From sequence record MH494197.1: a DNA stretch of 64,000 bases; one strand, 5' to 3'. Made by a program: the position numbers and the translations under genes. Position 1 is the stretch's first letter; each line of letters begins with the position of its first letter. Positions 5,569 through 64,000 of the stretch are shown here, piece by piece. The notes below the pieces were generated by a model, which was not told the origin of the DNA, made no database searches, and saw only the letters and a program-made list of their open reading frames with translations. The stretch is from Escherichia phage CMSTMSU.

Positions 5569-5982
5569 ACCGAACGATAGATTTCACCGTAGAGATATTC
5601 TCCAGCATCAACCGTAGCGTATTGGATATACAAAAATTTGTATGTGAATTGTATATCATTAAGATTCATATGTCAATCCTTATAGGTCTGTCAACTTCAA
5701 AACTTTGATCTCCATAAATTCCTATCAGTTTTTCAAGAAATTCAACATGGATAATACCTTGATAAGATTTGACACCTGAGTATTCGAATATATCATCGCC
5801 ATCAGTGTAAGTACTGTAATTCTTTTTATATATTCAGCAATAGAATCTAAGTAATCATAGTAATTATTAATAAATGGTGATTCTTTTGATTCGACATGTT
5901 CACCAATCTTCCCACTAAAAGATACATGTCATACAAACCATATATATTTTATACGTGAATTGAACATCATTCAAATTTAATT

Positions 5983-6243
5983 TCAAGGGAATATCTCCAG
6001 AGGAACACTCGTAAATCCAAAATCAGTGTAGAACTGTACCTCTACTTTACCATCGAGCTTAATGATTATATCTGAAAATTCTGCATGATCGTTGTTGATC
6101 ATTACAGTACTGAATTTTTCTTTAATCCTCTCACGCACAATATTAATCATTTCAATACATGTATCTTCTAAAAATATACTATTATTTTTATTTGCTAGGT
6201 CACGAATGCACTTGAATGTTAATTGGAAATCTTTATAATTCAT
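5983..6243 (-). CDS. hypothetical protein
   Basis: track ORF 86 aa. Confidence 0.35.
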   Translation of the reverse strand: MNYKDFQLTFKCIRDLANKNNSIFLEDTCIEMINIVRERIKEKFSTVMINNDHAEFSDIIIKLDGKVEVQFYTDFGFTSVPLEIFP

Positions 6244-48161: not shown

Positions 48162-48877
48162 AGGGACTCCATTAAAAATAATATCAATCCCATAATATAC
48201 GATTCATATAAAAGTCAATAACATTTTATTCGTAATACCCTTTATCGAAGTCGCTAAGGTTACCCGCCCTTTAGCCCCTACGCATTTTGCCATAGTCCAA
48301 TCCTTTTATTCATAAAAGTCAAGGGATTACCTATGCATTTTTTAACGCTGAAGTTTAAAAATGCCTTGACTTTTTATGATTCAGTACTAAATCCTTTTAC
48401 GCATTAATCCTTCGTTACGCTTACGATTATCTGTGTATCCCCATAGTCCTGCCATACTTCCACGCCAGCCGTCGCCCGGTTAGTCGTGCTGTCATCTGCT
48501 TAATGGTCTTAGGCTTTAGTGGAACCTGTTGCAGTACTGTACGCATAGTATCATCGACGTTATCGTGTACGCCTGCAATAGTGCCTAGGACGCTGTATAC
48601 GTGTATAGAACATATGTATGCCCTCCTGATATAGTTAAGGCCGCTACAAGGCGGCCTATGATGTTTGGTGATGTGTAACGCTTACAGTCCTAAGATAGTG
48701 CGTGCTTCGTTACGTTCCGTGCACAGCTGCATGATGTGAGCAAGTAAGTCCTTGCTAATGTATCCGGTGTTCATAGCTTCACGAATAGATACATCATAAG
48801 CACCGAACCCGTGCGAACGATACGCACATCATTCAGGTTAGTATTATAGATACCGCCGAGATCAACGGCTTCGAATA

Positions 48878-49081
48878 CTACATCAACAGAATATTCATTG
48901 TTGCCATCGTGGAAGTTTTCCAGTGCAATAGTATTGGATACCGCCCAACGTTTGCAGTTTCAATGATGCGGCACTGTTCCGGTTGGATAGTGCCATTACT
49001 TACAGCGTACTCCAGTGCATCTTTACCAAAAGTCCGAGCCAGTACTAAAACGTCAGCGAAGGAAGTGATTGAGAAGGTCAT
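48878..49081 (-). CDS. hypothetical small protein (67 aa), probably continues beyond a frameshift
   Basis: ATG MTFSITSF... with AAGGAG SD directly downstream of a promoter/stem-loop cassette; the track merges it with the upstream gene because no stop intervenes. Confidence 0.4.
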   Translation of the reverse strand: MTFSITSFADVLVLARTFGKDALEYAVSNGTIQPEQCRIIETANVGRYPILLHWKTSTMATMNILLM

Positions 49082-49099
49082 GATAAAACTCCTTAATTT

Positions 49100-49161
49100 A
49101 GGAGGGAGAACCATTTCCTCTCTATGTAAAACATTATACATGAATCTAAGTACTATGCAAG
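49100..49161 (-). promoter_or_regulatory. PeSL-like cassette (promoter plus 5' stem-loop)
   Basis: minus strand TTGCAT - 16 nt - TATAAT, then short hairpin, then SD/ATG. Confidence 0.5.
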
Positions 49162-49164
49162 TAC

Positions 49165-49498
49165 TTTTACATTTTAATACCGGATTCAGGTAGCGGTGAG
49201 ATCCATATTCTGGATCGGTTTCGGTCCAGTACTGTAAATCGATAGTACCTTTCGCGTTAATCTTGTCTACCAGCTTATTCATCTTAGCGTATACTACGTC
49301 AGCATCGATGCGTTTAAAGCCAGTAGCTTTAGTGAAGTAGTAGTGATTTGCTTCACTATCATTAAGGATATACCGAGCACCGTTTGCCGTTTGTGCGATA
49401 ATGATTGAGTATTCTACGTTACGGTCGAGGCCGTCGATGAATACAGAGGAAACATTAGTACGGATGAAAGCTTTAACGATAGCGATTGAAGTAGTCAT
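49165..49498 (-). CDS. hypothetical protein, 3' end unresolved
   Basis: MTTSIAIVKAFIRTN...; reading frame runs through the downstream cassette without a stop. Confidence 0.35.
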
Positions 49499-49587
49499 TT
49501 TGAATCTCCTAACTTTGTGGGCCGTCGCACCATTGCCGCCCTACGAGATACATTATTGCAGTACTGATATACTTTGTCAATACTTTT

Positions 49588-49725
49588 TATTAATAGTTTT
49601 AGTTCCACCAGCAGATAGTTACTCACCGTTATTAACTATATATTTTGGATACACCTATGCACCCTGTGGGCTAGTTTTTGTCTATGCGTATATATAGCAG
49701 GACTGACCGAGTCAATCCCTTTTTA
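49588..49725. repeat. ~130 bp repeated intergenic element, copy 1
   Basis: shares ATGCACCCTGTGGGCTAG ... TATATAGCA(A)GGACTGACCGAGTCAATCCCTTTTT with copies at 52.3, 55.6 and 60.1 kb. Confidence 0.6.
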
Positions 49726-49956
49726 TTCTTTTTGTTAGATGATTCTCCAATCATCAACGATCATGGTAAGATACCGAACCAGTGATTCGAGTGATTCGTG
49801 TTCTCGATAGTCTGCCGCTCCACCAGCGGTACAAGTACAGCCGATTAAGCCGTTTTGTAGTTCCGGATCTTTACGTCGATCTGGTTGGCTTTAGCTTCTT
49901 TCAGTACTTCAACCGGGCGAGAGCGATAGACATAATGTTTTACTCCAAACTATTGG

Positions 49957-50016
49957 CGGGAGAACTATTCCCCGCTCTATGTAAAACATTATACATTACT
50001 GGTTAGTACTGTCAAA
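49957..50016 (-). promoter_or_regulatory. PeSL-like cassette
   Basis: TTGACA - 16 nt - TATAAT on minus strand, hairpin GCGGG...CCCGC just downstream. Confidence 0.55.
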
Positions 50017-50022
50017 TAGTTT

Positions 50023-50280
50023 TTATGAAATATCTTCGATGTAGTCGGCCCATTTCATTTTTTCAGTACTGTCAATGGCTACCGGATTATTTGGATCAAA
50101 CCATTCACCATTACCGCAGTACATACCCACGGCTACGGTTTTATAGCCATCCCGGGCCGCACACCACGACATTGCACGATAGATATGGCCTTTAACTGGT
50201 TGCAGTACTGGTAACGTTTTATGGTCTTCTACGTAGGCCATAGCTTGTGGATTTACCCGATATTGTGTGAACTGTTCCAT
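50023..50280 (-). CDS. hypothetical protein (85 aa)
   Basis: track ORF; promoter-like sequence upstream. Confidence 0.45.
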   Translation of the reverse strand: MEQFTQYRVNPQAMAYVEDHKTLPVLQPVKGHIYRAMSWCAARDGYKTVAVGMYCGNGEWFDPNNPVAIDSTEKMKWADYIEDIS

Positions 50281-50593
50281 TATGTTTCCCCTTGTAGTTA
50301 GTAAAGTTATTACATCAGTACTATCAAGCTATGTCAATAGTACTGAAATAAAACTTTTAGATTAGATTATTGAGGCCGTCAATGGTAGACTCACTTTCTT
50401 CTTTCTCCCATTGTCGGTAGTACTTCCATGCTTCATGATAGGTGGCGATCAGTTCATCTTTTGATCCGGTTACATGCCAGTACTGAATCACGGTGAGCGG
50501 TGTTATAGATAGAATCGAATGATTTCTTCTCTTCTGCCGTTAGCTACTTCCCGCATCAGTTCATCAAAGTTAGCCATTTTATTACTCCTTTTA

Positions 50594-50650
50594 GTGGGGA
50601 GGATATCTCCCTATGCAAAACATTATACTTTGTTTTAGTTATTATGCAAG
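50594..50650 (-). promoter_or_regulatory. PeSL-like cassette
   Basis: TTGCAT - 15 nt - TATAAT; hairpin GGGAG GATAT CTCCC. Confidence 0.5.
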
Positions 50651-50902
50651 TACTTTTTCATATAAACATTAAATTCTACACCGCCGTAACCTTCCACGAT
50701 GATATGTTTTGCGTTATCACGTTTGCACATAGTGAAACCATCGTTTACGTGTTTTGCATTTTCGGGCGACATCACCGATAGCGGCACATACGGCACTAAT
50801 AACAGTATTCCGCAAAGTACTGGTATCATTGGCGGTCATAGTAGTTTGCAGTACTACGTTGTCGTATACGTGTGCATTGATAGTGATTTCGATAGTGTTC
50901 AT
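50635..50902 (-). CDS. hypothetical small protein, frame-shifted
   Basis: ORFs 50717..50902 and 50635..50829 overlap in two frames and look like one gene. Confidence 0.35.
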
Positions 50903-50916
50903 GGTGTATCTCGACT

Positions 50917-50978
50917 GGCGGGAGAACTATTCCCCGCTCTATGTAAAACATTATACGTTAATCTAACTACAATGCAAG
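50917..50978 (-). promoter_or_regulatory. PeSL-like cassette
   Basis: TTGCAT - 16 nt - TATAAT; hairpin GCGGGAGAACTATTCCCCGC. Confidence 0.55.
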
Positions 50979-51233
50979 TACTTTTAAATTTTATTTCCGA
51001 TATAGTCCGGTCTATTCTTTTCGGTCATACGCTTTGCTAATGTTTGCATATGGCTTATTGCTTGTAGTGTATCCTCTTCCGGGATGAATCGAGATAATCA
51101 GGATCATTCTTCACCTTGCAATGATTATGATAGCGTAGTACTGCCAGTACTTTTTAACTTCTTCTACTGTCATAATAAGTACCCACTTCGTTAGCTTTCA
51201 GGTTAGTATCAATCATCAGTGGATTTTTGTAGT

Positions 51234-51440
51234 TCACAAAACGAGTAGTTTTCTCGATAGCGAATCCCATATAATCCAGCTTACTAACAGTACATTCATT
51301 CTTAAAACTTCTTTCGCTGCATCGATGGCTGATTGCATGGATAACCGACCATCTAAATTAATGTTTCCAAATGATCCACCAGCAGAAGTAGGATTACCGT
51401 TCATATCTTTAATGATCATAGTAGCGGAGTAGCTGGACAT
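51234..51440 (-). CDS. hypothetical small protein
   Basis: track ORF 68 aa; AAGGA SD; cassette immediately upstream. Confidence 0.45.
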   Translation of the reverse strand: MSSYSATMIIKDMNGNPTSAGGSFGNINLDGRLSMQSAIDAAKEVLRMNVLLVSWIIWDSLSRKLLVL

Positions 51441-51463
51441 AATTTTGTTTCCTTTTATTGGTG

Positions 51464-51520
51464 TGGGAGAACTATTCTCCCTTGATGTAAACTATTATAC
51501 AGTACTGATATACTTTGTCA
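51464..51520 (-). promoter_or_regulatory. PeSL-like cassette
   Basis: TTGACA - 16 nt - TATAAT; perfect hairpin GGGAGA ACTAT TCTCCC. Confidence 0.6.
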
Positions 51521-51559
51521 AATACTTTTATTCGCCCATATAGATTAGATTATCATCGC

Positions 51560-51930
51560 CTACATAGGATCGCAAACGTTGATTTCTTCGCAGTACTTCG
51601 TGAATACATCGCCATAGTGACCTAAACCACGATCCCAAAACCAGTTCCGTGACCTTCGCGGGTAAGGAACAGATCATGACCAGCTTGCTCATAACCGTAA
51701 TCAATAAACATACCGCGAACTACTTCCAGATCATTACCGTGTTTCTCAATGAAGCGAGAACATGCAATCACTGCCGCTTGATGGGCTTGCTCTGATAATT
51801 CATAATCTTCCGTAATCGCCGTTCTCATTGTGTACAGTACTGAATTGCATAGCTTCAATGTAAGCTACAACCATTGCAGCATGATTTTTATCGTTAGTGA
51901 TGTTCCGAGCGAGATTAGTAGTAGTAGACA
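51560..51930 (-). CDS. hypothetical protein, frame-shifted
   Basis: ATG MSTTTNLARN...; continues in two other frames through ...REGHGTGFWDRGLGHYGDVF... Confidence 0.35.
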
Positions 51931-51951
51931 TGATTTTATTCCTTTTAGTAT

Positions 51952-52009
51952 CGGGGAGAACTATTCTCCCTTGATGTAAACTATTATACAGTACTAATAT
52001 ACTTTGTCA
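51952..52009 (-). promoter_or_regulatory. PeSL-like cassette
   Basis: TTGACA - 16 nt - TATAAT; hairpin GGGGAGAACTATTCTCCC. Confidence 0.6.
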
Positions 52010-52254
52010 ATACTTAATTACGTTTAAAATGATATGTGCCTTTATCATCCTGTACGCCCCATACTGATTTACCATCAACACCAGTGAAGCCGGATTGTAA
52101 TTCAATATGGAAACCATTATTATCAACTACAAAAACTTTTTATTTTCATCCCGATAACATTGATATTCTGAATCAACATTAAAGGCCGCATCATTCAGAA
52201 GATTAGAAGCGTAAATGCAAGTCATTGTAGTCATGATTTTATTCCTTATTGCCG

Positions 52255-52308
52255 TGGAACCGTTCCTCTCGATATAAAACATTATACTTGATTCTAAGTA
52301 TAATGCAA
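52255..52308 (-). promoter_or_regulatory. PeSL-like cassette
   Basis: TTGCAT - 16 nt - TATAAT; hairpin GGAAC C GTTCC, stem sequence differs from other copies but pairing is kept. Confidence 0.55.
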
Positions 52309-52311
52309 GTA

Positions 52312-52446
52312 CTTTTTAAAATAGTTTTCAGTACTGAATACTTATATAATAGATACACTTCCGCACCCTATGGGTCAGTGAGTTATCTCTCAATGGATAT
52401 ATATAGCAAAGGACTGACCGAGTCAATCCCTTTTTAATCTTTTTAT
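52312..52446. repeat. ~130 bp repeated intergenic element, copy 2
   Basis: CGCACCCTATGGGTCAGTGAG...GGACTGACCGAGTCAATCCCTTTTTAATC. Confidence 0.6.
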
Positions 52447-52507
52447 CGTGTTACCTTACTTGCTGCCACATCACGCTTTTTATAGTACTGATTCCAGATA
52501 TTGCTGG

Positions 52508-52825
52508 TTAAACCGTAATCAAGTACTTTAATAAGTCCATTACGATCCCGCCGATATTCTGTTTTCTGATATCTCTTATCGTTAGTGTTGATAATGTATC
52601 ATCGACGTGTTGTAGTGCATCAGCAAAGCGGTGCTGGCGTTCAATGGCATTACGTTTAATATTGTACTTTAATTCATTGCACGCGTTTACGTGCTTTACA
52701 CTGCCTTTACTTGCAGTACTCAACCGATCCATAACGATAAACATATTATCAGGATCGCATAAATGCATATGCACCTTTGCAAAGTACTGTTTCAACTGAG
52801 GGCGGTCATAGTCTAAAAATTCCAT
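52508..52825 (-). CDS. hypothetical protein (105 aa)
   Basis: track ORF. Confidence 0.45.
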   Translation of the reverse strand: MEFLDYDRPQLKQYFAKVHMHLCDPDNMFIVMDRLSTASKGSVKHVNACNELKYNIKRNAIERQHRFADALQHVDDTLSTLTIRDIRKQNIGGIVMDLLKYLITV

Positions 52826-52891
52826 ACCTTACATTCAGTTTCATTTTGTTCGACACCCGCATCACAATTCGCGACCTTAATCACTAACCGA

Positions 52892-53080
52892 TCATTTAAA
52901 GCGAAAACTATACGGGAAGATCCGCCCGATGATCTCCAGTCCAGCTAACCGACAAGCTGAAAGGATCTCTTTGTTGGTTTCCATTTCTGACAGTGTACGG
53001 ATGAATTTAGTATAATTACGCATTGCATGTTCTCCTTGAGTTAATGAAACTATATTACAGTACTTTACTATCAATGGCAA
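52892..53080 (-). CDS. hypothetical small protein
   Basis: track ORF 62 aa. Confidence 0.35.
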   Translation of the reverse strand: MPLIVKYCNIVSLTQGEHAMRNYTKFIRTLSEMETNKEILSACRLAGLEIIGRIFPYSFRFK

Positions 53081-53296
53081 CTACTTTTTAACATTAACGG
53101 CGTGAATCACTTCCTTAGTGTTTTTAGTACTGAATACTTTCGCCGCTCCTTGTTCGACCGTGATACGATAGCGACCATTAACATCAACCATATTAATAAA
53201 GTCCGGCGTGCTGAATGGTGTTGTTTTGCATTTGAGTACTGTTAACAGTTCCACCAGCGATGTAGTTTCTTTGATACGTTTTTCTAAAGTAATCAT
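53081..53296 (-). CDS. hypothetical small protein
   Basis: track ORF 71 aa; promoter-like repeat upstream, also found before the next gene. Confidence 0.4.
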   Translation of the reverse strand: MITLEKRIKETTSLVELLTVLKCKTTPFSTPDFINMVDVNGRYRITVEQGAAKVFSTKNTKEVIHAVNVKK

Positions 53297-53434
53297 TTTG
53301 TTTCTCCCCGTGTTGGTATGTACATATAGTACTAAAACATTTGAGTACTGTCAATTAGATAATATTATATTTCTTAAAATAAAATGCGTCTTGTGTTGGT
53401 TGATACTCGATACCGTTACCGTTATTGACTTCAA

Positions 53435-53629
53435 CTAATAAACCTTTGTCAATAAGTTTTTAATAGTACGATACCCTTGTTGAAAATTGGTAAAATGTGA
53501 ATCATTACGAAAGGTATAACCGTGCTTAACTGCTTCATCAATAGTTTTCTTTTCGATTTTAGATAATTTCATTTTGTTTCTCCCGTGTTGGTATATGTAC
53601 ATAGTACTAAAACATTTGAGTACTGTCAA
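53435..53629 (-). CDS. hypothetical small protein
   Basis: track ORF; likely start at internal MKLSKIEKK with GGGAGA SD. Confidence 0.4.
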   Translation of the reverse strand: MTVLKCFSTMYIYQHGRNKMKLSKIEKKTIDEAVKHGYTFRNDSHFTNFQQGYRTIKNLLTKVY

Positions 53630-53890
53630 CGTGATATTAGTTTTATTTTCTTATTGTATTGTTGATGCTCATAAAGGTTTATCTTTCCTGTGTTCTCGAT
53701 TACTATCCTGTTGTTAGTGTCCACATCGATTACACGCAGTTTCCGTTGCTTAACTTCCGGGTAATAGGTTACCATTAATAAACTCATTAGCAAGCTGTAC
53801 GGCCTTTGTGATGATTCTCTTCGGTGCTTTATAGTGTACCCGTAAGATGTTATCTTTATATAGTTGAACCTTAATCATTTTGTTTGTCCT

Positions 53891-53916
53891 ATAAAAAGGC
53901 GGGAACTGATCCCGCC
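53891..53916 (-). terminator. rho-independent terminator (minus strand)
   Basis: stem GGCGGGA/TCCCGCC, loop ACTGA, followed by U-run in minus transcript. Confidence 0.6.
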
Positions 53917-54423
53917 GTGTTGTTAGTACTGCAAGTTATTAGATAACCGGCGGCGTTTACTGTATACTGTTACACGATTACCCTTACGGTCGTGTCGGAT
54001 CTCTTTCTGGTTGCGAATCAGTTCACTTGGACGCTTAAGGTTTGCCGTGATCCGCGTGAGTCCATGCATTGGCATTTACCTGTACTTTGATATCAGAACC
54101 AGCGATAAACTCATCTTGTGCGTCAGTATTGCCGCCAGCATATCCGCTCGTTTTAGTTCTGCTGCTGTTAGTACTGGCTCAGGTGAATTCACAATATCAG
54201 AGATCTTTGAACTGTACGGCCCAGCGTTGGCCTTTCGGTGCATCTTTGCCCATGTCTTTAAATGCTGCTCCTTCCTCGCGTGCAACAATACGGGCAGCTT
54301 CACGGGTAGCGTAGAATTTAGTAATCATGGTATACATCCTATTAGTTAAGTTAGTACTACAAGTTAGAGTCTATTATAAAGTACTATCTGGGCAATGTCA
54401 AATAGTACTTTAAATGGATTCTA

Positions 54424-54745
54424 TTACATGTCTTTCTTACGTTTTACATCGTGGTAGCGAACTGTTATTTCTTTGTTGATCTCTTCCTCGATGCGGTGAA
54501 TAACTTTTTCTTTCGGGTTGAAACCTATAACGGTTTCTTTAATGATCTCAAGCCCGTGTATTCGCCTTGTGTACCGTAACCGTATGTAAAGGTTTCGTGT
54601 CCCGTGTCTTCCAGCGGTCGCCAATTAACGCAGACACGTAGCAAGAGTGGTAAGTATTGCCGTGTGAATCAGTCCACCGATTAACGTTAATGTCAAAGGA
54701 GGTTACAATTTTCAATTCTACTTTCTGGGCAAGGATCATAGCCAT
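54424..54745 (-). CDS. hypothetical protein, frame-shifted
   Basis: MAMILAQKVELKIV...NVNRWTDSHGNTYHSCYVS; two overlapping track ORFs. Confidence 0.4.
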
Positions 54746-54764
54746 TTTATTTCTCTCTTTTAGT

Positions 54765-54825
54765 TAGGAGGAACCATTCCCTCACTTGATGTAAACTATT
54801 ATACAGTACTAAGATACTTTGTCAA
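54765..54825 (-). promoter_or_regulatory. PeSL-like cassette
   Basis: TTGACA - 16 nt - TATAAT; hairpin in 5' leader. Confidence 0.55.
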
Positions 54826-54843
54826 TACTTATTTTTGGAAAGT

Positions 54844-55008
54844 TTACGCATTAATTCTACGCTTTCTTGTGAACGTTTTGCTACCGGCAAGCTGCATGGG
54901 TAGTAAACATTTTGTATAGTCTGACGCTTTGCCACCGAACCGAGCGGCACGTTCACGGGCACTTGGAACTAATACTATTTCTTTCTTGCAGATAGTGCAC
55001 TTAGCCAT
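54844..55008 (-). CDS. small Cys-containing protein (54 aa)
   Basis: MAKCTICKKEIVLVPSARERAARFGGKASDY...; own cassette upstream. Confidence 0.4.
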   Translation of the reverse strand: MAKCTICKKEIVLVPSARERAARFGGKASDYTKCLLPMQLAGSKTFTRKRRINA

Positions 55009-55027
55009 TTTATTTCTCTCTCTTTGT

Positions 55028-55089
55028 TAGAGGGGAACCGTTTCCTCACTCGATGTAAACTATTATACAGTACTAAGATACTTTGTCAA
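55028..55089 (-). promoter_or_regulatory. PeSL-like cassette
   Basis: TTGACA - 16 nt - TATAAT; hairpin GGAA ACGG TTCC. Confidence 0.55.
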
Positions 55090-55093
55090 TACT

Positions 55094-55366
55094 TAATTAT
55101 TGTAAATGTCGTGAATAGTGATAAAGTTTTTACGACCGTAAACCTGCAAATCAATATCAATGTAGTGCTTATCTAGTACATCCTCGACGCTTAACGCGGT
55201 GTCGTGGATATCTTCGTAGAATTGAGTATCTACAATCTTGCTTAAGTCATCCGGCGTTAACTCATCGTTAAGCAGTTGAACCGCCGGATATCTGCTTCAC
55301 GTTTCCAGTCTTCCAGTTAGTAGTCAGTACTTGTTCGATTTCGTTAGCTGTCAGTAGAATCCGCAT
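55094..55366 (-). CDS. hypothetical protein, frame-shifted
   Basis: MRILLTANEIEQVL... then ...LLNDELTPDDLSKIVDTQFYEDIHD... in another frame. Confidence 0.35.
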
Positions 55367-55547
55367 TTTTATGTTTCCTTATCAGTGGTTGATGTAAGTA
55401 TTATACTCGTTTACTTTCTATTGTCAAACTATTTTATCAGGGAGTTTTTCGTATGTCTTACTCGACTACTTAACGGGGTTACTTGTTTCGTTCCCCGTCC
55501 TGATGTAAAACATTATACTTGATTCTAAGTACAATGCAAGTACTTTT

Positions 55548-55670
55548 TAAAAATAGTTTTCAGTACTAGCCACCAGCAAACAATAGATACATTTATGCAC
55601 CCTGTGGGCTGATTTGTTTCTATGCGTATATAATAGCAAAGGACTGAATCCCTTATTCAATTATTTTTAA
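55548..55670. repeat. ~130 bp repeated intergenic element, copy 3
   Basis: ATGCACCCTGTGGGCTGA...TATAATAGCAAAGGACTGAATCCC. Confidence 0.55.
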
Positions 55671-55816
55671 ACTTCTTTCGGGTTGCGATAGGTGATAGCG
55701 TTCGGGTACATTTGTTTAATGTTATTCCATGCCCGGTTGACATTGTAACCACTTGATCGAATCAGTTGGTTACTACCGACACCTTGAAACACTACTTCGA
55801 ATAAGAATTCTTTCAT
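55668..55816 (-). CDS. small hypothetical protein (49 aa)
   Basis: MKEFLFEVVFQGVGSNQLIRSSGYNVNRAW... Confidence 0.3.
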
Positions 55817-56286
55817 GCTTTCACCTCGCGATCTGCTTTACCTTTACGCCGACATTACTAATTGTTCGCGTTGCCATAAGTCGAGTGATACAAAAGTTTT
55901 GCGGTATCACTTTTAGGATACTCGCCATTAGTACCTAACCGATAAAACAGATCTTTCAGTACTGATAATTCTACTTGGATCATTATACTTTCTCTTTGTT
56001 GGGAGGGAACTATTCTTCCGATATAAAACATTATACACTTTATTCAGTACAAGTACTTTTAATCTTTCAGCCAATGATCCTGAATGAATTTTTCACCGGA
56101 ACCTTGCTGCATTGATTGTAACAGACGTTCACGATGAGCGGCGGCGAATTGCTCAGTACTATGCGTTACACCGGTTGATATCTGGATTCACCATTGGGGC
56201 TGATGTATTGTACATCCCACGGTTTTTCGTTAGTATCAGACCATTTACGAACGATTAGTTGACCTTGCATTTTTCTTTCTCTTAGT

Positions 56287-56346
56287 GGGGAGAATCATTT
56301 CTCCCCTTCATGTAACTTATTATACAGTACTAGATTATCTTGTCAA
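56287..56346 (-). promoter_or_regulatory. PeSL-like cassette
   Basis: TTGACA - 16 nt - TATAAT; perfect 8 bp hairpin GGGGAGAA TCAT TTCTCCCC. Confidence 0.6.
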
Positions 56347-56351
56347 TAGTT

Positions 56352-56636
56352 TTATTCACCTTGTTTGAATTTAGTTTTCTCCATTGATTCCATGATTGCA
56401 ACCAATACGCCGTGGATCTCGCTTAACGCGGAATCACTAAAAGCATTAATGAATAGTCGATCATTCTCGCGAATATTTTTAATGTACTTTTCAGCAGTAG
56501 TTGCGAATTCATTCAACGGTAGATCAAATGCTTTATCCCATGATGGATGGCGTAATTGTAACAGTACTGGATTATCACGATCACGGGAAAACGTACCAGT
56601 GATGAAACATACGCCCGAATACTTTCGAACTGGCAA
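56352..56636 (-). CDS. hypothetical protein (94 aa)
   Basis: track ORF. Confidence 0.45.
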   Translation of the reverse strand: MPVRKYSGVCFITGTFSRDRDNPVLLQLRHPSWDKAFDLPLNEFATTAEKYIKNIRENDRLFINAFSDSALSEIHGVLVAIMESMEKTKFKQGE

Positions 56637-56959
56637 CGGACTTCCTTTGTGATAGTAGTATGAATGTACATTTATTGTTATCCTCTATTAAATTAATATT
56701 ACAGTTTATGAATCAATTCTTTATCTAAGCGATAGCGTACATTATTAATAGTAACGGCATTGTTTTAATGCTACGCTGTACAGGTCCACCAGCAATAACA
56801 AATGTTGCTTTATTACCCCGAACAATGATAGCACTTCCGTGATTACCGAAATCATCTTGTACTAAAATACTTGATAAGTTTTCCATTTTATTTCTCTTAG
56901 TAGGGAAGATGTTTCCTTGATGTAAGTACTATAACAGTACTGAAAACTAATTGCAAGTA

Positions 56960-57313
56960 CTATGATAAAATCATGATAGGATATTCACTATCGATCAGTA
57001 CCTCGAATCCGAACCCTTCGTACCATTCTTTAAGATTAAAGGCGTTATCTTCTCCGTATCGCATTCTAAGATGATACAATCTGAATCATCAGCGGCATCG
57101 ATAAAGGCATTCATTAATTCGTTACCTTCACCATTGCCCCGACTATCAGGATCAACATAAAGAGAATCAATGAAAGCAACACGGTCATAATCAAGATCCG
57201 GTGCAATGATTCCACGTTTAACAAACCAGTACTGCAATTGTGCTACTTTGCTGTACCTGATAACCAGTGATCTCGCCATTGTCAGTAGTACGCGTGATAT
57301 GTTGTATTCCCAT
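56960..57313 (-). CDS. GNAT-family N-acetyltransferase-like small protein, frame-shifted twice
   Basis: acetyl-CoA-binding motif ...VDPDSRGNGEGNELMNAFIDAA... and C-terminal ...EWYEGFGFEVL... readable across three frames. Confidence 0.5.
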
Positions 57314-57962
57314 GATTTCTATCCTCAGTTAAGATATAAAACATTATACACTATCTTTCAGTACTGTCAATTACTTTTATCTCATAGATCTATGCCAACA
57401 ATTACGCGGATCTCTTTAAAAGTACTATCATGATCCTCCGGCAAGTAATACAATACATGCACCTATAACGGCCCGGCGTCGATTCTCAGGGATTTTACCG
57501 CCGCAGTCGAGGCAATGTACAGTGATTCTCTTTGTGCGTTAATTTGCTTTCTAGCGTGGTTAACGGCGGCCTGAATCACTGCGTTAATCTCGTCTTGTTC
57601 GGCCCCGTCTTTCGCGAATCCTACAGCCATTATTTTAACCTCATTATAAAAATACTATAGTACTGTAATGCTACAATAATACTACTAGTGCTAATCTTAT
57701 TCAAACCACATGATACTACATATCCACCAGCATTACCACGGATAGTAACGCCTTTGTACTGTCTATATAAATTCAACTGCGTATATTGCCTTTGATCAAG
57801 AATTGATCAGAATTATACGCCTTATGCTAAATTGATCCAGTACTTTTGATCATTTATTGATCGATGTTATATAGTTACATTTGTGCACCCTATGGGTTAG
57901 TGACGTTCTCGTCTTGATGTAAGTATTATGCCAGTACTGGAGGATATTGTCAATAGATTATT

Positions 57963-58160
57963 TTAATTTTTTCTATCATTAATTAATGCTTTCAGTACTA
58001 TACTAATAACTTGCAATGATTCATCAATGACAATGAAATTATTCTCTTTCATTAGATGATAGTTACCATTGATTGTATATTCTAACGAGTACTGTTTACG
58101 TTTAATTTTTGATAATGTTTCTATTTGTTTTTGTACTGATTTCATGCTAATCATTGTCAA
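57963..58160 (-). CDS. hypothetical small protein
   Basis: track ORF 65 aa. Confidence 0.35.
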   Translation of the reverse strand: MTMISMKSVQKQIETLSKIKRKQYSLEYTINGNYHLMKENNFIVIDESLQVISIVLKALINDRKN

Positions 58161-58983
58161 ACGTCCTGTAACGCATTCTAACGAGATAAACGGTTGAGTA
58201 CTGGCATTGTATAGGGTAATGATTAAAGCCCACCAGCGTTAACCAGTGGGCTATAATCTTACATCTTGCGGATAATCTTAACAGTATCTTTCACCGATTT
58301 ACCGTTTTGCTGACATTGCTCGATCATCGCGTATTGTTCTGCGGTCAGATCCTCGCCAGTTTTTGCCAGTACTGCGTCGATGAATGAATCCAGTGCGATC
58401 ATTTTGTTTCTCTCTTAGGTTAAGTTAACTACTGTTTATAAAACTTATTATACAGTACTATCAAACTATGTCAATAGTACTGGTAATATATTTTAGCGGT
58501 AGTCGTCGTATGCTTTATTCACGGCGAATATAACTTTCAAAGGCTTCGTCTACCGTTTCATACTCCCGAACATAATCACCATATGAAACTACATACATAC
58601 CTTTTGATCTTCAAACGTCATGATGATAGAATCCAGACCAACGATTTCAGTTTTTGCGATGATAGCCATTTTTAATTCCTTAGTAGTGTAGTTGATAAAA
58701 GTTATTATGTCAGTACTATCAAACTATGTCAATAGTACTGTGATAATATTTTAGTTAATGATAGTCAGTGTAAAATTGTAATCCCCTGCCCGTATAGTAC
58801 TTTATCGCCGAACGTTCCAACACGTTTCATATTGCAATAGATACCCATAACACTTTTACATCTTTGATATTCCGAACGCCAGTAATATCCTTGTTTAAAT
58901 GATCGTGATCAGAAAATAAAACTTGTTTTGCATTTTTCAGTACAGTGCAGATATTAGCCATTTTGTTTTCTCTTCTGTTAGTG

Positions 58984-59041
58984 GGGAGAAGTTTTTCTCC
59001 CTTGATGTAAACTATTATACAGTACTATAATCTATTGTCAA
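58984..59041 (-). promoter_or_regulatory. PeSL-like cassette
   Basis: TTGACA - 16 nt - TATAAT; hairpin GGGAGA AGTTTT TCTCCC. Confidence 0.6.
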
Positions 59042-59414
59042 ACTATTTTTTATATTATTCGAAATCTTCTGGACCGGACTGATAATCATCTTCACCGTAT
59101 GCACTTTCTAACCGCTCGCCAGTGCAATCATCAGTTAGTGAGTCATCCTCATAGTTCACGTCTACGCCAGTGATGTAAAACTGGCTATCGTCTGGATCAT
59201 TGAAATTAATTTTCTGGATGTTTACAATAACTGTATTGATGCCGTGACACCGCCATCAGCCGTTACAAAGTACTGATATTTTTCACAACCGCCTGAATTG
59301 AAACCGTAATTAATTTCGGCCCGACCATCACTTAAACGCAGTGTCTGAGCGATGATTTCATTTTCAAAGTTAGATTGAGCAATTGCAATAGTCATGATTT
59401 GTTTCTTATTATCA

Positions 59415-59471
59415 GGGAAACCGTTTCCCTTTCGATGTAAAACATTATACGCTTATCAGGAAGTAATGCAA
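59415..59471 (-). promoter_or_regulatory. PeSL-like cassette
   Basis: TTGCAT - 16 nt - TATAAT; hairpin GGGAAA CCG TTTCCC. Confidence 0.55.
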
Positions 59472-59957
59472 GTACTATTTCACGTTAATTTCAAAGTACT
59501 GCTCTTTGATGTTTTCCTGTTGGTAAATCTCGTTTAATGCTTTAAGATCTAAAACCTGTTTACCTGCTGCCTGAATATACTTTTAAGAGTCGCTAACAGC
59601 TTCTCAGGCGTGTTTGTAGTCTTACGTGTTGGGATCTTATCGTGCCCCATAGCGTAGTACTGCTTACGTGCTATAGTACTGATAACACTGCGGTACGGTT
59701 CCATGATCAGCTTGTCTGTATTCGTCGCTATCCCCAAACTTCATACCGTGGATCGCAAAGGTCATCATCATGCGGTCGTTATCGCGGATATTGTGGGGCA
59801 GTCGGCAAGCTCGCGAGTCAGTGACATAGTGATCCCCACGTCGCCACCCAGCGGTAAAGGTCGGGCGATAAAGAAACCGTTAGGGAATACTTTCAGGAAG
59901 TTTTCTTGAACTGCTGCGACGAATTCGATGCTATTCATAATTCATTTCCTTAATTAG

Positions 59958-60015
59958 TGGGGAAGTTGTTTCCTCTTGATGTAAAACATTATACGCCTAT
60001 TGAGATAGTTTGCAA
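59958..60015 (-). promoter_or_regulatory. PeSL-like cassette
   Basis: TTGCAA - 16 nt - TATAAT; hairpin GGAA GTTGT TTCC. Confidence 0.5.
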
Positions 60016-60032
60016 GTACTTTCTACAAATAC

Positions 60033-60160
60033 TTTTAAAATAGTTTTCAGTACTCAATACTCATATAATAGATACACTTATGCACCCTGTGGGCTAGTGA
60101 GCTATCTCTCAATGAATATATAATAGCAAAATGGCTGACCGAGTCAACCACTTTTTCATT
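60033..60160. repeat. ~130 bp repeated intergenic element, copy 4
   Basis: ATGCACCCTGTGGGCTAGTGAGCTATCTCTCAATGAATATATAATAGCAAAATGGCTGACCGAGTCAACC. Confidence 0.6.
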
Positions 60161-60271
60161 TATTTTAGCTTTTAGAATCGCCGCCTTTCGCGTCATGCCT
60201 TGCTTGATGTATTCTGTACTTTCGCTTTACGTGCATTCGCTTTATTTGCTTTCGTAAACGCCGAACAACTT

Positions 60272-60580
60272 TTATAGTTTAAACCTGTTGGATTCATTTA
60301 AATCACCATAAAGAATAGATAGGTTACTAACAACGCCGCGATCAATGCACCGACCGAACTGTAATAAGCTAATGATCTCATTTTTAGCCTGAAAATAATG
60401 TTTAATTTGAGCGGCGGTCAGTGCACAATTACGCAGGAAGTTTTCTGTATAACTTTTGCGAGTACTGAAAGAGAATTGACCTTTGCTGCTGCCGATAGTA
60501 ACATCAAACCGAGCGTTGTATTGTTTCATTTTGTTTCTCCTGTTATTGGGGAGAATCATTTCTCCCTTCATGTAAAACAT
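60272..60580 (-). CDS. hypothetical protein
   Basis: track ORF 102 aa; probable start at internal MKQYNARFDV. Confidence 0.4.
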   Translation of the reverse strand: MFYMKGEMILPNNRRNKMKQYNARFDVTIGSSKGQFSFSTRKSYTENFLRNCALTAAQIKHYFQAKNEIISLLQFGRCIDRGVVSNLSILYGDLNESNRFKL

Positions 60581-60605
60581 TATACAGTACTAAAACTAAT
60601 TGCAA
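60548..60605 (-). promoter_or_regulatory. PeSL-like cassette
   Basis: TTGCAA - 15 nt - TATAAT; hairpin GGGGAGAATCATTTCTCCC, identical to copy at 60771. Confidence 0.55.
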
Positions 60606-60770
60606 GTACTATTTTTAGATTTACGCAAACTTTCTACCATCTCAGGAGTAAGGTCTGCGGGTAGGAAACTACTTCATCAACGAAACGTAAAGGAATACCC
60701 CAGCGAAAGGTGAACGTGCTTTCTTAGTATTACTCTTTTTGATGCTTTCATTTCATATTCTTAATTAGTG

Positions 60771-60827
60771 GGGAGAATCATTTCTCCCTTCATGTAAAAC
60801 ATTATACGCGTTTAAAACTAATTGCAA
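60771..60827 (-). promoter_or_regulatory. PeSL-like cassette
   Basis: TTGCAA - 15 nt - TATAAT; hairpin GGGGAGAATCATTTCTCCC. Confidence 0.55.
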
Positions 60828-61691
60828 GTACTATTTGAAAGTAAATGCTCATACGCTACATTAACTACGTTTTCAATAACCGACTGTACAGAAAGATCCC
60901 CACTTCCGGCTATAGTAGAAATCGCTTACAGTAGTGTCATCGTATGCAAATACTTTACCGTGACTGCATCAATCACATACATATTAACCTTTAAGATGTC
61001 GATCTTATCCTGTACAGTAAGCATATTAATTAACCTTTTAAGTACTGACTTAAGTAATCTTGTTGATCTTCGGTGATTGCAGCCATCTTCCCTAGTACTG
61101 GATTAATGATATAATCCCTGTAACGTCCTGTAACGCATTCTCAGGCGGTTTAACGGCTGGGGTAGCCATAGCCATTGCCGACTTGTTCGACGCTGTAACG
61201 CTCATAAAGGCGGCATTCTTCCGGTGTTAACATAGCATCAATGCGTTTCATTGGTTTAATGATGCTTTCGATCTCATTCAGTACTTGATTAACGTTCATG
61301 GTATAATCCCAATATAAGCGGCCTAAATCGACCGCTAACGATGTTTTGATTAATAGGTGTATGGTTGACGTTCAAACAATGATTGCACGTTGTACGCCCC
61401 GCTTATGGGCTTTGCTGGTAAATCAATTTTATATTGTTCACGCTTAAAGATAATAAAACGGCAATTGTTTTAACATCAAAATTGATTGAACGTTCCGAGT
61501 TTACCATCGTGCACAAATACAAGATAACCGCTCGCTACTTGTTTTGTAGTACTGGTTGCAACCATAGACCGCCGAACATGTGTACCTGCGTCGATTAAAG
61601 TACTGATATTTTTCATTTTACTATCCTCTTAAGTTGATTTAATTTCTTTCCCTATGCAGACACTGTACCAAAGTATCTGCATAAAGTAAAG

Positions 61692-62013
61692 CTAATTAAA
61701 GATCTTTTTACGTTTTACATCCTGTACAGTACAATGCAACGGGATAGACAAATCATTGCACAAACGATAGAGGGAGGTTTCATCAGTATTAAGCCCGTCT
61801 ACTGATTCCTTTAAGAGAGATAACGCCGTTTGTTGGTATGCATCTTCATAGCCATAAGTAAATGATTCAACCGCCAGATCATTCAAGCCGTTATCCAGTT
61901 CGACGCTTACATGACAAGAATGATGTATTGCCATATGAATCAGACCAACGTTTACCGTCAACATTGATTGCACGGATTGCAGCCGAAACGGTGTTAATGA
62001 TAGTTTTAGCCAT
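61692..62013 (-). CDS. hypothetical protein, frame-shifted; paralog of 54424..54745
   Basis: MAKTIINTVSAAIRAINVDGKRWSDSYGN then ...HHSCHVSVELDNG...; shares RW-x-DS-x-GN-x-YHSC-x-VS with 54424..54745. Confidence 0.4.
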
Positions 62014-62263
62014 TTTAGTATTCCTTAAATTAATATGTGTCGTCTTGATAAAATCTATTATGCCAGTACTATCAAACTATGTCAATAGTACTGTGATAAT
62101 ATTTTTACTTACTTTTTGCTTTCTTTATTGCTTCCACCGGTCGGCCCATTCTTTACCCCATACTTGTAAATTATAATGGTACTGGCAAAGTGCAACGCCC
62201 CGCTTTAAACCAGTAATAGATTTTTACCACATTGACAAGTTTTCATTTTAGTTTCCTTGTAGT

Positions 62264-62321
62264 GGGAGAACCATTTTCCCCTTGATGTAATGTATTATAC
62301 TTTATTCGATTTACTTTGCAA
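62264..62321 (-). promoter_or_regulatory. PeSL-like cassette
   Basis: TTGCAA - 16 nt - TATAAT; hairpin GGGAGAACCATTTTCCC. Confidence 0.5.
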
Positions 62322-62338
62322 GTACTTTTTAATTTAAT

Positions 62339-62551
62339 TCATCCGTAAAGGATACGCTCAACGCCCAAATCAGTTAAACTAATCGACGGCACTTGATAGG
62401 TTTCAATGTATGCTACACTTGCCCACTGACCGAACTCATTAACGGCCGTATTCATTGCATTTTGCAATTCCACACCTTCCTTGTTGGTAATGACTGCAAC
62501 TACTTGTTCGTTGCCAGTAGTACCAGATACGCGAGTAATGATAATAGCCAT
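62339..62551 (-). CDS. hypothetical small protein
   Basis: track ORF 70 aa. Confidence 0.4.
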   Translation of the reverse strand: MAIIITRVSGTTGNEQVVAVITNKEGVELQNAMNTAVNEFGQWASVAYIETYQVPSISLTDLGVERILYG

Positions 62552-62986
62552 TTTTTAATTCCTATTCAGTAGTTGATGTATGTATTATGCCAGTACTTAA
62601 AACTATTGTCAAACTATTTTTAAAGTTTATCAATGATTGATGCCGTTTCATTGATAGTCTTGCCGTGTTTTGCACACGCGATAACTGCTTTAAATTCCTT
62701 TGATGACCAATCTTTCTTACTGCATACTGACATTACTTGTAAAGTAAAACAATCCAGTTCATAAGTATTCATCTTTATATCCTCAGTTAGTTAAGGTGTC
62801 TGCCTTGATGTAATTAATTATACGCTAATCTCTTAATCGTGCAAGTACTTTTATTACTTTTTGCAAAATACTTTAAACGCTCTCAATCGCATTACAACGA
62901 CCTTAACGCCACCAGCTAGGCAATGCATCAGATAATCAGTTTAAAGCGTTAGAATCGTTTCTAGGCGGTGCTGGTGGCGTAAACGA

Positions 62987-63015
62987 TAAAAAAAGCCCAC
63001 CGTTTAAGGTGGGCT
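62987..63015 (-). terminator. rho-independent terminator (minus strand)
   Basis: 8 bp GC-rich stem AGCCCACC/GGTGGGCT, loop GTTTAA, followed by 7 U in minus transcript; 13 nt downstream of stop at 63028. Confidence 0.7.
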
Positions 63016-63027
63016 AGTGATTCAGTT

Positions 63028-63406
63028 TTATGCTTCAACTTTGCGATGAGCTTCGATCCATTCCTCGCGAGTCATACCACTGGAGTTAATCGCGTCCAGT
63101 ACTACCGCAATGCAGTTACCACGCACCGGAATCAGATATTCTTCCCGTTGTACTACCGCTACGCGTTCCTGAATCCATTTTTGGCTTTTACTTCTGGCTT
63201 GTCTTCCCATACTTAACCGCCGTGGCTTTTGTGCCATCTCTGTAACTACTTCCAGATCCAACTACTGCCGCCTGAATACTTTCGATTGTTGCTTGTAGTT
63301 CTGCTTCACGGGCCGCCTTTGCCGCTTCAATTTCTGCCGCTTTATTTGCTTGTAGTTCTTTCGCAGTACTGTAAGCGATGTTAAAATTATTGCGTACCGC
63401 TTTCAT
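63028..63406 (-). CDS. hypothetical protein, frame-shifted
   Basis: overlapping ORFs 63188..63406 (Ala/Glu-rich, coiled-coil-like) and 63028..63261. Confidence 0.35.
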
Positions 63407-63690
63407 GGTATCGTTATCCAGTTCAGCCGGATCTCAGCCGCGACGTTAGTTTCATTTGCACCAGTGCTTTGATGAATGATTTTACATTAGCCATTTTATA
63501 AATCCTCAATTAAAGTTTAGTTTACGTTTATTAGTGTATCAAAGTTTTCTGACGTGTCCAGTTTTTCGTTCGACTTACTGGCGGTCTACTTAGTGCTCCC
63601 CGTCTTGATGTAATACATTCTACGCCTTTTTGCGGTAATGTCAACTACTTTCTTAAAACTATTTTCAAAGTATCTCAGTACTACGATACT

Positions 63691-63717
63691 ACAAAACAAA
63701 AAGCCCACCCGTGGGCT
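63691..63717 (-). terminator. rho-independent terminator (minus strand)
   Basis: stem AGCCCAC/GTGGGCT with U-rich tail in minus transcript. Confidence 0.55.
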
Positions 63718-64000
63718 GTATTAATCAGTAAGTAAAATATTAAACACTTTACCATTTAACGTTATTGGTGCACTGCTACCGTGCTCAAGATCCGTTAGTA
63801 TACCTGCAATCGCTTTATCATTGGCGACCTTTCCAGTGTCCAACAGTACGACAGTACTGATAAGATTAACGCTCGTTTCAATATCATAATGCACGGCGTT
63901 AAGGAGTTGTGTATACTGCTTTCGTTAAGTAAAACTATTCGTGCTGTCATGATGTACCCGTAGTATCTATCAACGGCAATTAATAACGCCGGAATGCGTT

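Follow-up and report, generated by a model that had tools for sequence, protein, structure and literature searches.

Two divergent phrog_6246 genes, each behind its own PeSL-like promoter cassette, in the terminal repeat of the Asteriusvirus coliphage CMSTMSU

The stretch analysed here (the window) comprises 64,000 nucleotides of Escherichia phage CMSTMSU (record MH494197.1) and carries on its minus strand two small genes, A and B, of the protein family phrog_6246. Gene A lies at 54424..54745 (minus strand) and encodes 107 amino acids (aa) after repair of two 1-nt deletions. Gene B lies at 61696..62013 (minus strand) and encodes 106 to 107 aa after repair of deletions of 3, 2 and 1 nt. The ATG start is at the upper coordinate, 54745 in A and 62013 in B, and in the window neither gene keeps a single reading frame. 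A is split into three frames, MAMIL...GDRWK, then FTYGYGTQGEYTGL, then EIIKETV...DVKRKKDM; B is split into two, with a third shift just before the stop. An earlier note, made from the letters alone, had placed the pair at 54424..54745 and 61692..62013. The limits of A and the start of B are retained; the end of B is moved, the stop in the corrected frame being at 61696..61698 and position 61692 belonging to the stop of the shifted frame. The motif segments which that note had read as shared are present at both loci, as NVNRWTDSHGNTYHSCYVS in A and as DGKRWSDSYGNT followed by HHSCHVS in B, where the two parts stand in different frames.

By megablast, the window belongs to an Asteriusvirus jumbo coliphage of the 121Q/PBECO4/G17 group. 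The closest records are WPEC3 (94.5% over an 8-kb stretch) and WPEC5 and fEgEco12 (97% over 24 kb). Orthologs of A are WPEC3 CDS019, 121Q gp303, G17_00017 and phAPEC6 gp505c; orthologs of B are WPEC3 CDS046, 121Q gp282 and G17_00038. Both genes are uninterrupted 324-nt open reading frames (ORFs) of 107 aa in WPEC3, are uninterrupted also in 121Q, G17 and WPEC5, and keep the same order in all four. Between WPEC3 and 121Q, A shows 15 synonymous and 4 non-synonymous differences, with a ratio of non-synonymous to synonymous rates (dN/dS) of 0.06; A is under strong purifying selection in the relatives. B shows 3 and 3 differences, too few to judge selection.

A and B are homologs over their full length, with similarity far beyond chance. 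The frame-repaired window proteins share 38% identity over 94 aa (E 2e-26), the significant pairwise alignment that the earlier note had expected after frame correction; the intact WPEC3 orthologs share 40% over 107 aa without a gap (E 3e-30). Searched by tblastn against the other locus of the window, the intact WPEC3 orthologs gave E 8e-14 and 1e-12. The similarity is present near the N-terminus, where it had first been noticed, but it is not confined there and spans the entire protein to the C-terminus (FTYGY...DVKRKK). Synonymous sites between A and B are saturated. A hidden Markov model (HMM) of the family, run on the six-frame translation of the 64 kb, found exactly two loci, A and B, and neither this search nor tblastn gave a third copy in the window.

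Promoters stand directly upstream of both genes, each within a cassette of its own, as had been proposed. The promoter of A (54798..54825, minus strand) is TTGACA-16-TATAAT, matches the sigma-70 consensus at 12/12 positions and belongs to a class I cassette. In WPEC3 this promoter is followed by a G/C hairpin in the 5' untranslated region; in the window the hairpin occupies 54765..54785 (minus strand). Its WPEC3 form is GAGGGGAA-UGG-UUCCCCUC (-15.5 kcal/mol, z -2.2), and the window copy is degraded by deletions in its G and C runs. The promoter of B (62057..62085, minus strand) is TTGACA-17-CATAAT with an extended -10 TG, matches at 11/12 positions and lies within the inverted repeat CAGTACTAT...ATAGTACTG. 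The cassette of B is of class II, in WPEC3 CAGTACTATTGACATAGTTTGATAGTACTGGCATAAT, with the inverted repeat around the -35 box and no 5' hairpin. A stem-loop of 15 bp without a U tract is located a few bases 3' of the B stop (61650..61686, minus strand; WPEC3 copy -23.9 kcal/mol, z -6.6) and might serve in attenuation, in RNA stability or in processing.

The two genes lie in a region that is rich in such cassettes. The GC content rises from about 0.35 to 0.41 at position 48257, where position 1 of the WPEC5 record aligns and the cassettes begin, and 23 of the 27 consensus minus-strand promoters of the window stand beyond 49 kb (49-63 kb). The direct terminal repeats of fEgEco12, the closest relative, measure 20,993 bp and are experimentally supported (PMC13070987). 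Records with both repeats have four places for the family (tblastn). From the GC rise, the promoter density and the start of WPEC5, the cassette-rich early region (48257..64000) is therefore assigned to a direct terminal repeat of about 21 kb. The same WPEC5 start, the fEgEco12 repeat and the four family places put A and B inside it, at about 6 kb and 13.5 kb, respectively, from its inner edge. The window thus spans the junction of unique sequence and repeat. Positions 1-42000 have a lower GC content (0.29 to 0.35), and their WPEC5 counterpart packs about 67 small, overlapping hypothetical genes into each 24 kb, on one strand and with no individual promoters. This tight packing contrasts strongly with the cassette region.

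At least three promoter-cassette classes are present at 49100-63700. Examples of the repeated cassettes, which resemble those of T4-type phages, are at 54748-54835, 55012-55099, 62002-62105 and 58649-58752. In WPEC3, the cassettes of A and of B are each 95 to 99% identical to the cassette of the next, unrelated gene upstream. Blocks of homology between phages tend to end at these elements: 8 of 15 blocks have their upstream end no more than 30 nt from a cassette edge, where 8.4% would be expected (p about 1e-5; the blocks are from comparisons of the window with 121Q, G17 and WPEC3, which are not independent). The cassettes do mark the limits of exchangeable modules within the Asteriusvirus terminal repeat. 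A further element of about 100 nt occurs in five minus-strand copies (49630-49745, 52335-52455, 55570-55690, 57855-57975 and 60055-60175). It consists of an inverted repeat over a TTGACT -35 box (GGATTGACTCGGTCAGTCC), then TATTAT, then a conserved block GCCCACAGGGTGCATAAGTGTATC, and matched no Rfam family. Rfam and tRNA scans of the window as a whole were empty.

The slot of B in phAPEC6 gives an example of exchange. It is occupied by a divergent third member of the family, gp525c (114 aa, RRWFQASYGNTYFS..., 5788-6132 of the phAPEC6 stretch), in which H33 is replaced by F. This protein is only about 38% identical to B, between flanks that are 93 to 94% identical. Homology of phAPEC6 with WPEC3 ends at the cassette 5' of gp525c and restarts within the conserved 3' end of the gene. 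The gene that is located between two identical class II cassettes in WPEC3 is absent from phAPEC6. To judge from these breakpoints, the B slot of phAPEC6 has undergone a cassette-bounded allele replacement. The phAPEC6 paper mentions neither the A and B genes nor the promoters.

The layout is close to that of T4-type phages, in which promoter-early stem-loop elements (PeSLs), a sigma-70 promoter with a polyG/polyC stem-loop, occur in variable positions before ORFans and take part in modular shuffling (Arbiol et al. 2010, PMC2839356; Comeau et al. 2014, PMC4122927). Here, likewise, a consensus sigma-70 promoter is joined to an A/T-rich upstream stretch and to a stem-loop after the -10 box or over the -35 box; the unit is repeated in a hyperplastic region, ahead of small ORFans, and the cassettes are the breakpoints of insertions, deletions and replacements between related phages. 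The differences are as follows. PeSLs are known from T4-type (Tevenvirinae) genomes, whereas the present host genome is a Rak2-like jumbo phage with a terminal repeat of about 21 kb. PeSLs are defined also by promoter and terminator activity and by mini-circles, whereas the Asteriusvirus cassettes are known from sequence alone. The paralogs A and B, moreover, do not have a cassette in common. As the host genome is an Asteriusvirus and not one of the Tevenvirinae, the cassettes are to be regarded as an analogue or an extension of the PeSL concept.

Both proteins are ordinary members of phrog_6246, an already catalogued family of unknown function. The PHROG profile matches the WPEC3 orthologs end to end (A, E 4.6e-37; B, E 1.3e-40; profile positions 3-113 of 113), so that the database search suggested earlier returned one family for both genes; the window fragments match the family HMM built here at E 6e-22 to 2e-5. 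Other members (121Q gp282 and gp303, Phi92_gp231, phAPEC6 gp505c and gp525c) share the motifs RW..GNTYH, YGYG and DVxRKKDL with A and B, have a similar length of about 100 to 115 aa and stand, like them, in early regions of small genes. The window copies look different from these members because of indel errors, with no real difference behind it. The family signature is R-W-x(4)-G-N-T-Y-H ... Y-G-Y-G-x-x-Y-x-Q-T-A ... D-V-x-R-K-K-D-L, the last part being C-terminal and ending exactly at the protein end in 72% of members. Conserved residues are R23, W24, G29, N30, T31, Y32, H33, Y55, G56, Y57, Y61, T64, A65, D100, V101, R103, K104, D106 and L107. The signature residues W24, G29-N-T-Y-H33, Y55-G-Y57, D100-V and R103-K-K-D-L are all found in A and B after frame repair.

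With a profile of 7 sequences, exhaustive HMMER searching of representatives at 50% identity gave at least 1251 clusters at E<=1e-3, of which 172 reached E<=1e-10. Most members are stand-alone proteins of 90 to 135 aa, and a few carry the domain within longer proteins, whose fusion partners gave no Pfam or PHROG match. Among cultured phages, about 209 records have a family match (tblastn), all annotated as hypothetical. Hosts of the family include Asteriusvirus, phi92-like phages and Phapecoctavirus (Phi92_gp231), CR3- and phiTE-like phages, some Pseudomonas and Stenotrophomonas phages and T7-like Klebsiella phages; the plasmid collection gave no match. Pfam, NCBIfam and PADLOC scans of A, B and other members, including the fused ones, gave nothing meaningful. 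Searches of PDB sequences with profiles of 7 and 98 sequences found no relative, the best matches being a designed repeat protein and a non-significant phosphomevalonate kinase. BFVD returned only uncharacterised phage proteins, of phages Salva and Av-05, and nothing relevant was found in the literature on the motif, phrog_6246 or Phi92_gp231. One JGI metagenome contig (417-2985) encodes a protein of 592 aa that carries the family domain towards its C-terminus, two genes downstream of an LPD3-domain (large polyvalent-protein-associated domain) protein. This single case hints at a link to phage polyvalent proteins.

The AlphaFold2 model (98 sequences) has a predicted local distance difference test score (pLDDT) of 97.2 and a predicted template modelling score (pTM) of 0.88. 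It consists of a three-stranded meander (16-25, 31-41, 44-55), helices 60-72 and 83-89 and a strand 94-101. A weak RNase H-like topology can be seen in it. The acidic catalytic triad of that fold is absent: position 26 is D in 52% and Q in 35% of sequences, and no other acidic residue before D100 is conserved.

In relation to WPEC3, A has lost 1 nt twice (GGG to GG and TTA to TT). B has lost 3 nt in TCCCTGG (a CCTGG site), 2 nt inside the GNTYHS motif (ACTTATC to ACATC) and 1 nt in an A6 run just before the stop. Such losses occur throughout the window. There are 107 short deletions and 17 insertions against WPEC5 in 24 kb, and 121 deletions and 3 insertions against WPEC3 in 10.7 kb. Deletions are found at 26 of 39 CCWGG (Dcm) sites; of the homopolymers, 24 to 40% are shortened at a length of 5 nt and about 80% or more at >=6 nt. 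The interval 52.8-63.9 kb holds orthologs of 37 WPEC3 genes, and 26 of them (70%) are broken in the window.

The frameshifts could in principle be real, A and B being then decaying pseudogenes or genes in need of programmed ribosomal frameshifting. Both genes are indeed out of frame in the sequence as given, and one deletion in B has no known error-prone context. However, the deletion bias is the same window-wide, with most neighbouring orthologs broken; the losses fall on homopolymers and Dcm sites; in every relative the genes run uninterrupted over 324 nt, A being under strong purifying selection; and the shifts in A and B are at different, non-homologous positions. The window-wide bias therefore makes real pseudogenes or programmed frameshifting very unlikely. 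The broken frames are better read as basecalling or assembly errors, the genes themselves being most probably intact. The pattern has the signature of uncorrected long-read basecalling, from which the technology is inferred. The strict form of the earlier proposal is a different matter. It states that the pair arose by copying of one gene-plus-promoter module and is itself evidence of that process. Each gene does stand directly 3' of a cassette, and cassettes do stand at the edges of homology blocks between phages. Against this, the cassettes of A and B are of different classes and each resembles that of an unrelated neighbour at 95 to 99%, whereas the proteins share 40% identity and synonymous sites between the genes are saturated; the cassettes therefore spread or are homogenised independently of A and B. 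With different cassette classes and saturated sites, the pair does not document a copied gene-plus-promoter unit, and this origin is judged improbable. Of the suggested module shuffling, cassette-bounded exchange is retained, on the block ends and the phAPEC6 B slot; the use of the pair as evidence for it is not.

The origin of the pair itself is more evenly argued. A and B may be xenologs, acquired separately from other phages into cassette-bounded slots with no duplication within the genome. Separate acquisition does happen, since phAPEC6 has swapped in a whole allele, about 38% identical, amid flanks of 93 to 94% identity. The family is widespread in unrelated phages, and B resembles its homolog in Cronobacter phage CR3 (39.5%) about as much as it resembles A (40%). 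A neighbour-joining tree with 124 members places A and B in one clade of 7 leaves, together with B-like sequences and three metagenomic ones (P0010, P0012 and P0071). The presence of these metagenomic sequences is compatible with separate acquisition; the joint position of A and B in so small a clade is not what it would lead one to expect, and the best non-self matches of A are B-like sequences, both proteins have 107 aa and align without a gap, and the order of the pair is the same in 121Q, G17, WPEC3 and WPEC5. The clade favours an old duplication in a related lineage, and the xenolog origin, while possible, is regarded as unlikely. By either route, the duplication or acquisition is ancient. 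It was further considered whether the family acts catalytically, either as a minimal RNase H-like nuclease or as an ASKHA-like half-domain that binds nucleotides. The weak topological likeness speaks for it; the family differs from that fold in having no conserved catalytic acidic residue, poor structural scores and a single domain of about 100 aa. A catalytic role of this kind is rather improbable.

Taken as a whole, the evidence is best explained, with good confidence, by two anciently diverged phrog_6246 members that are early genes in the Asteriusvirus terminal repeat, each with its own PeSL-like cassette for host sigma-70, with frameshifts that are errors and with a probable accessory role directed at the host. 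The sequence data themselves show that the genes are homologous and belong to the family, that they have promoters, lie in the repeat and are conserved in relatives, that the window has the error profile described and that exchange is bounded by cassettes. Several points weigh against this reading. The sequencing-error case is built on comparison with relatives and not on reads, and the 2-nt deletion in B lies in neither a homopolymer nor a Dcm site. Every database name is 'hypothetical protein', and no experiment or annotated homolog gives a function. The few neighbourhoods covered showed no conserved partner gene. That the conserved residues gather in one site is derived from a predicted topology, and the isoelectric point (pI) of members ranges from 5.7 to 9.7, which gives no common charge-based mechanism. 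DNA mimicry was rejected, as the pI of the family is not consistently acidic.

Under the preferred reading, host sigma-70 RNA polymerase would transcribe each gene from its own PeSL-like cassette, and A and B would be non-essential immediate-early accessory proteins acting on the host, in takeover or anti-defence. An immediate-early, dispensable, host-acting protein is suggested by the sigma-70 promoters, by the location in the terminal repeat and by comparable early places in other phages. In a T7-like Klebsiella phage the homolog stands upstream of the phage RNA polymerase gene; in phi92 and in a metagenomic myovirus the homologs are in small-gene arrays with spacers of about 80 nt, and the myovirus array, like the window, includes a DksA/TraR-like gene. 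In the related Rak2-like phage CBB, RpoD-promoter regions of short ORFs have been assigned to early host takeover (PMC5259590). Phage UB has a single family match (tblastn), whose 40% identity to B is at the level seen between A and B. This single match and the divergent member in the phAPEC6 B slot are taken as support for dispensability and exchangeability, so far as genome comparison can indicate them.

In phage T5, the pre-early (first-step-transfer) region lies in a long direct terminal repeat, and its small host-takeover genes, which have strong sigma-70 promoters, are thus present twice per genome. The Asteriusvirus repeat genes have a similar layout, a likeness of organisation only; we know of no two-step DNA entry in Asteriusvirus. 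Action of A and B may proceed through one conserved aromatic/basic site, predicted from the model to comprise W24, N30, T31, Y32, H33, Y55, Y57, Y61, D100, R103, K104 and D106. Most plausibly, this site would serve not for RNase H-type catalysis but for binding, either of a nucleotide-like ligand or of a partner that is a nucleic acid or a protein. Two copies would widen the target range. A bolder proposal is that phrog_6246 is an unrecognised, very widespread immediate-early effector whose invariant Tyr/His/Trp/Asn/Arg/Lys site binds or modifies a host signalling nucleotide or a nucleic-acid end, and hence a new anti-defence or host-shutoff mechanism. It is put forward as speculative and on balance doubtful; if true, the two Asteriusvirus copies and the phAPEC6 allele swap would reflect an arms race.

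The pair is real but ordinary: two paralogs among the accessory early genes of a jumbo phage. Owing to the systematic deletions, any remark on frameshifts, pseudogenes or frame correction in this window is to be discounted. PeSL-like, cassette-bounded exchange, described for T4-type phages, is found also in the Asteriusvirus terminal repeat, an observation of modest value. The family phrog_6246 combines a large size and a confident model with the lack of any known function or structural relative and is therefore a reasonable candidate for early-effector screens.

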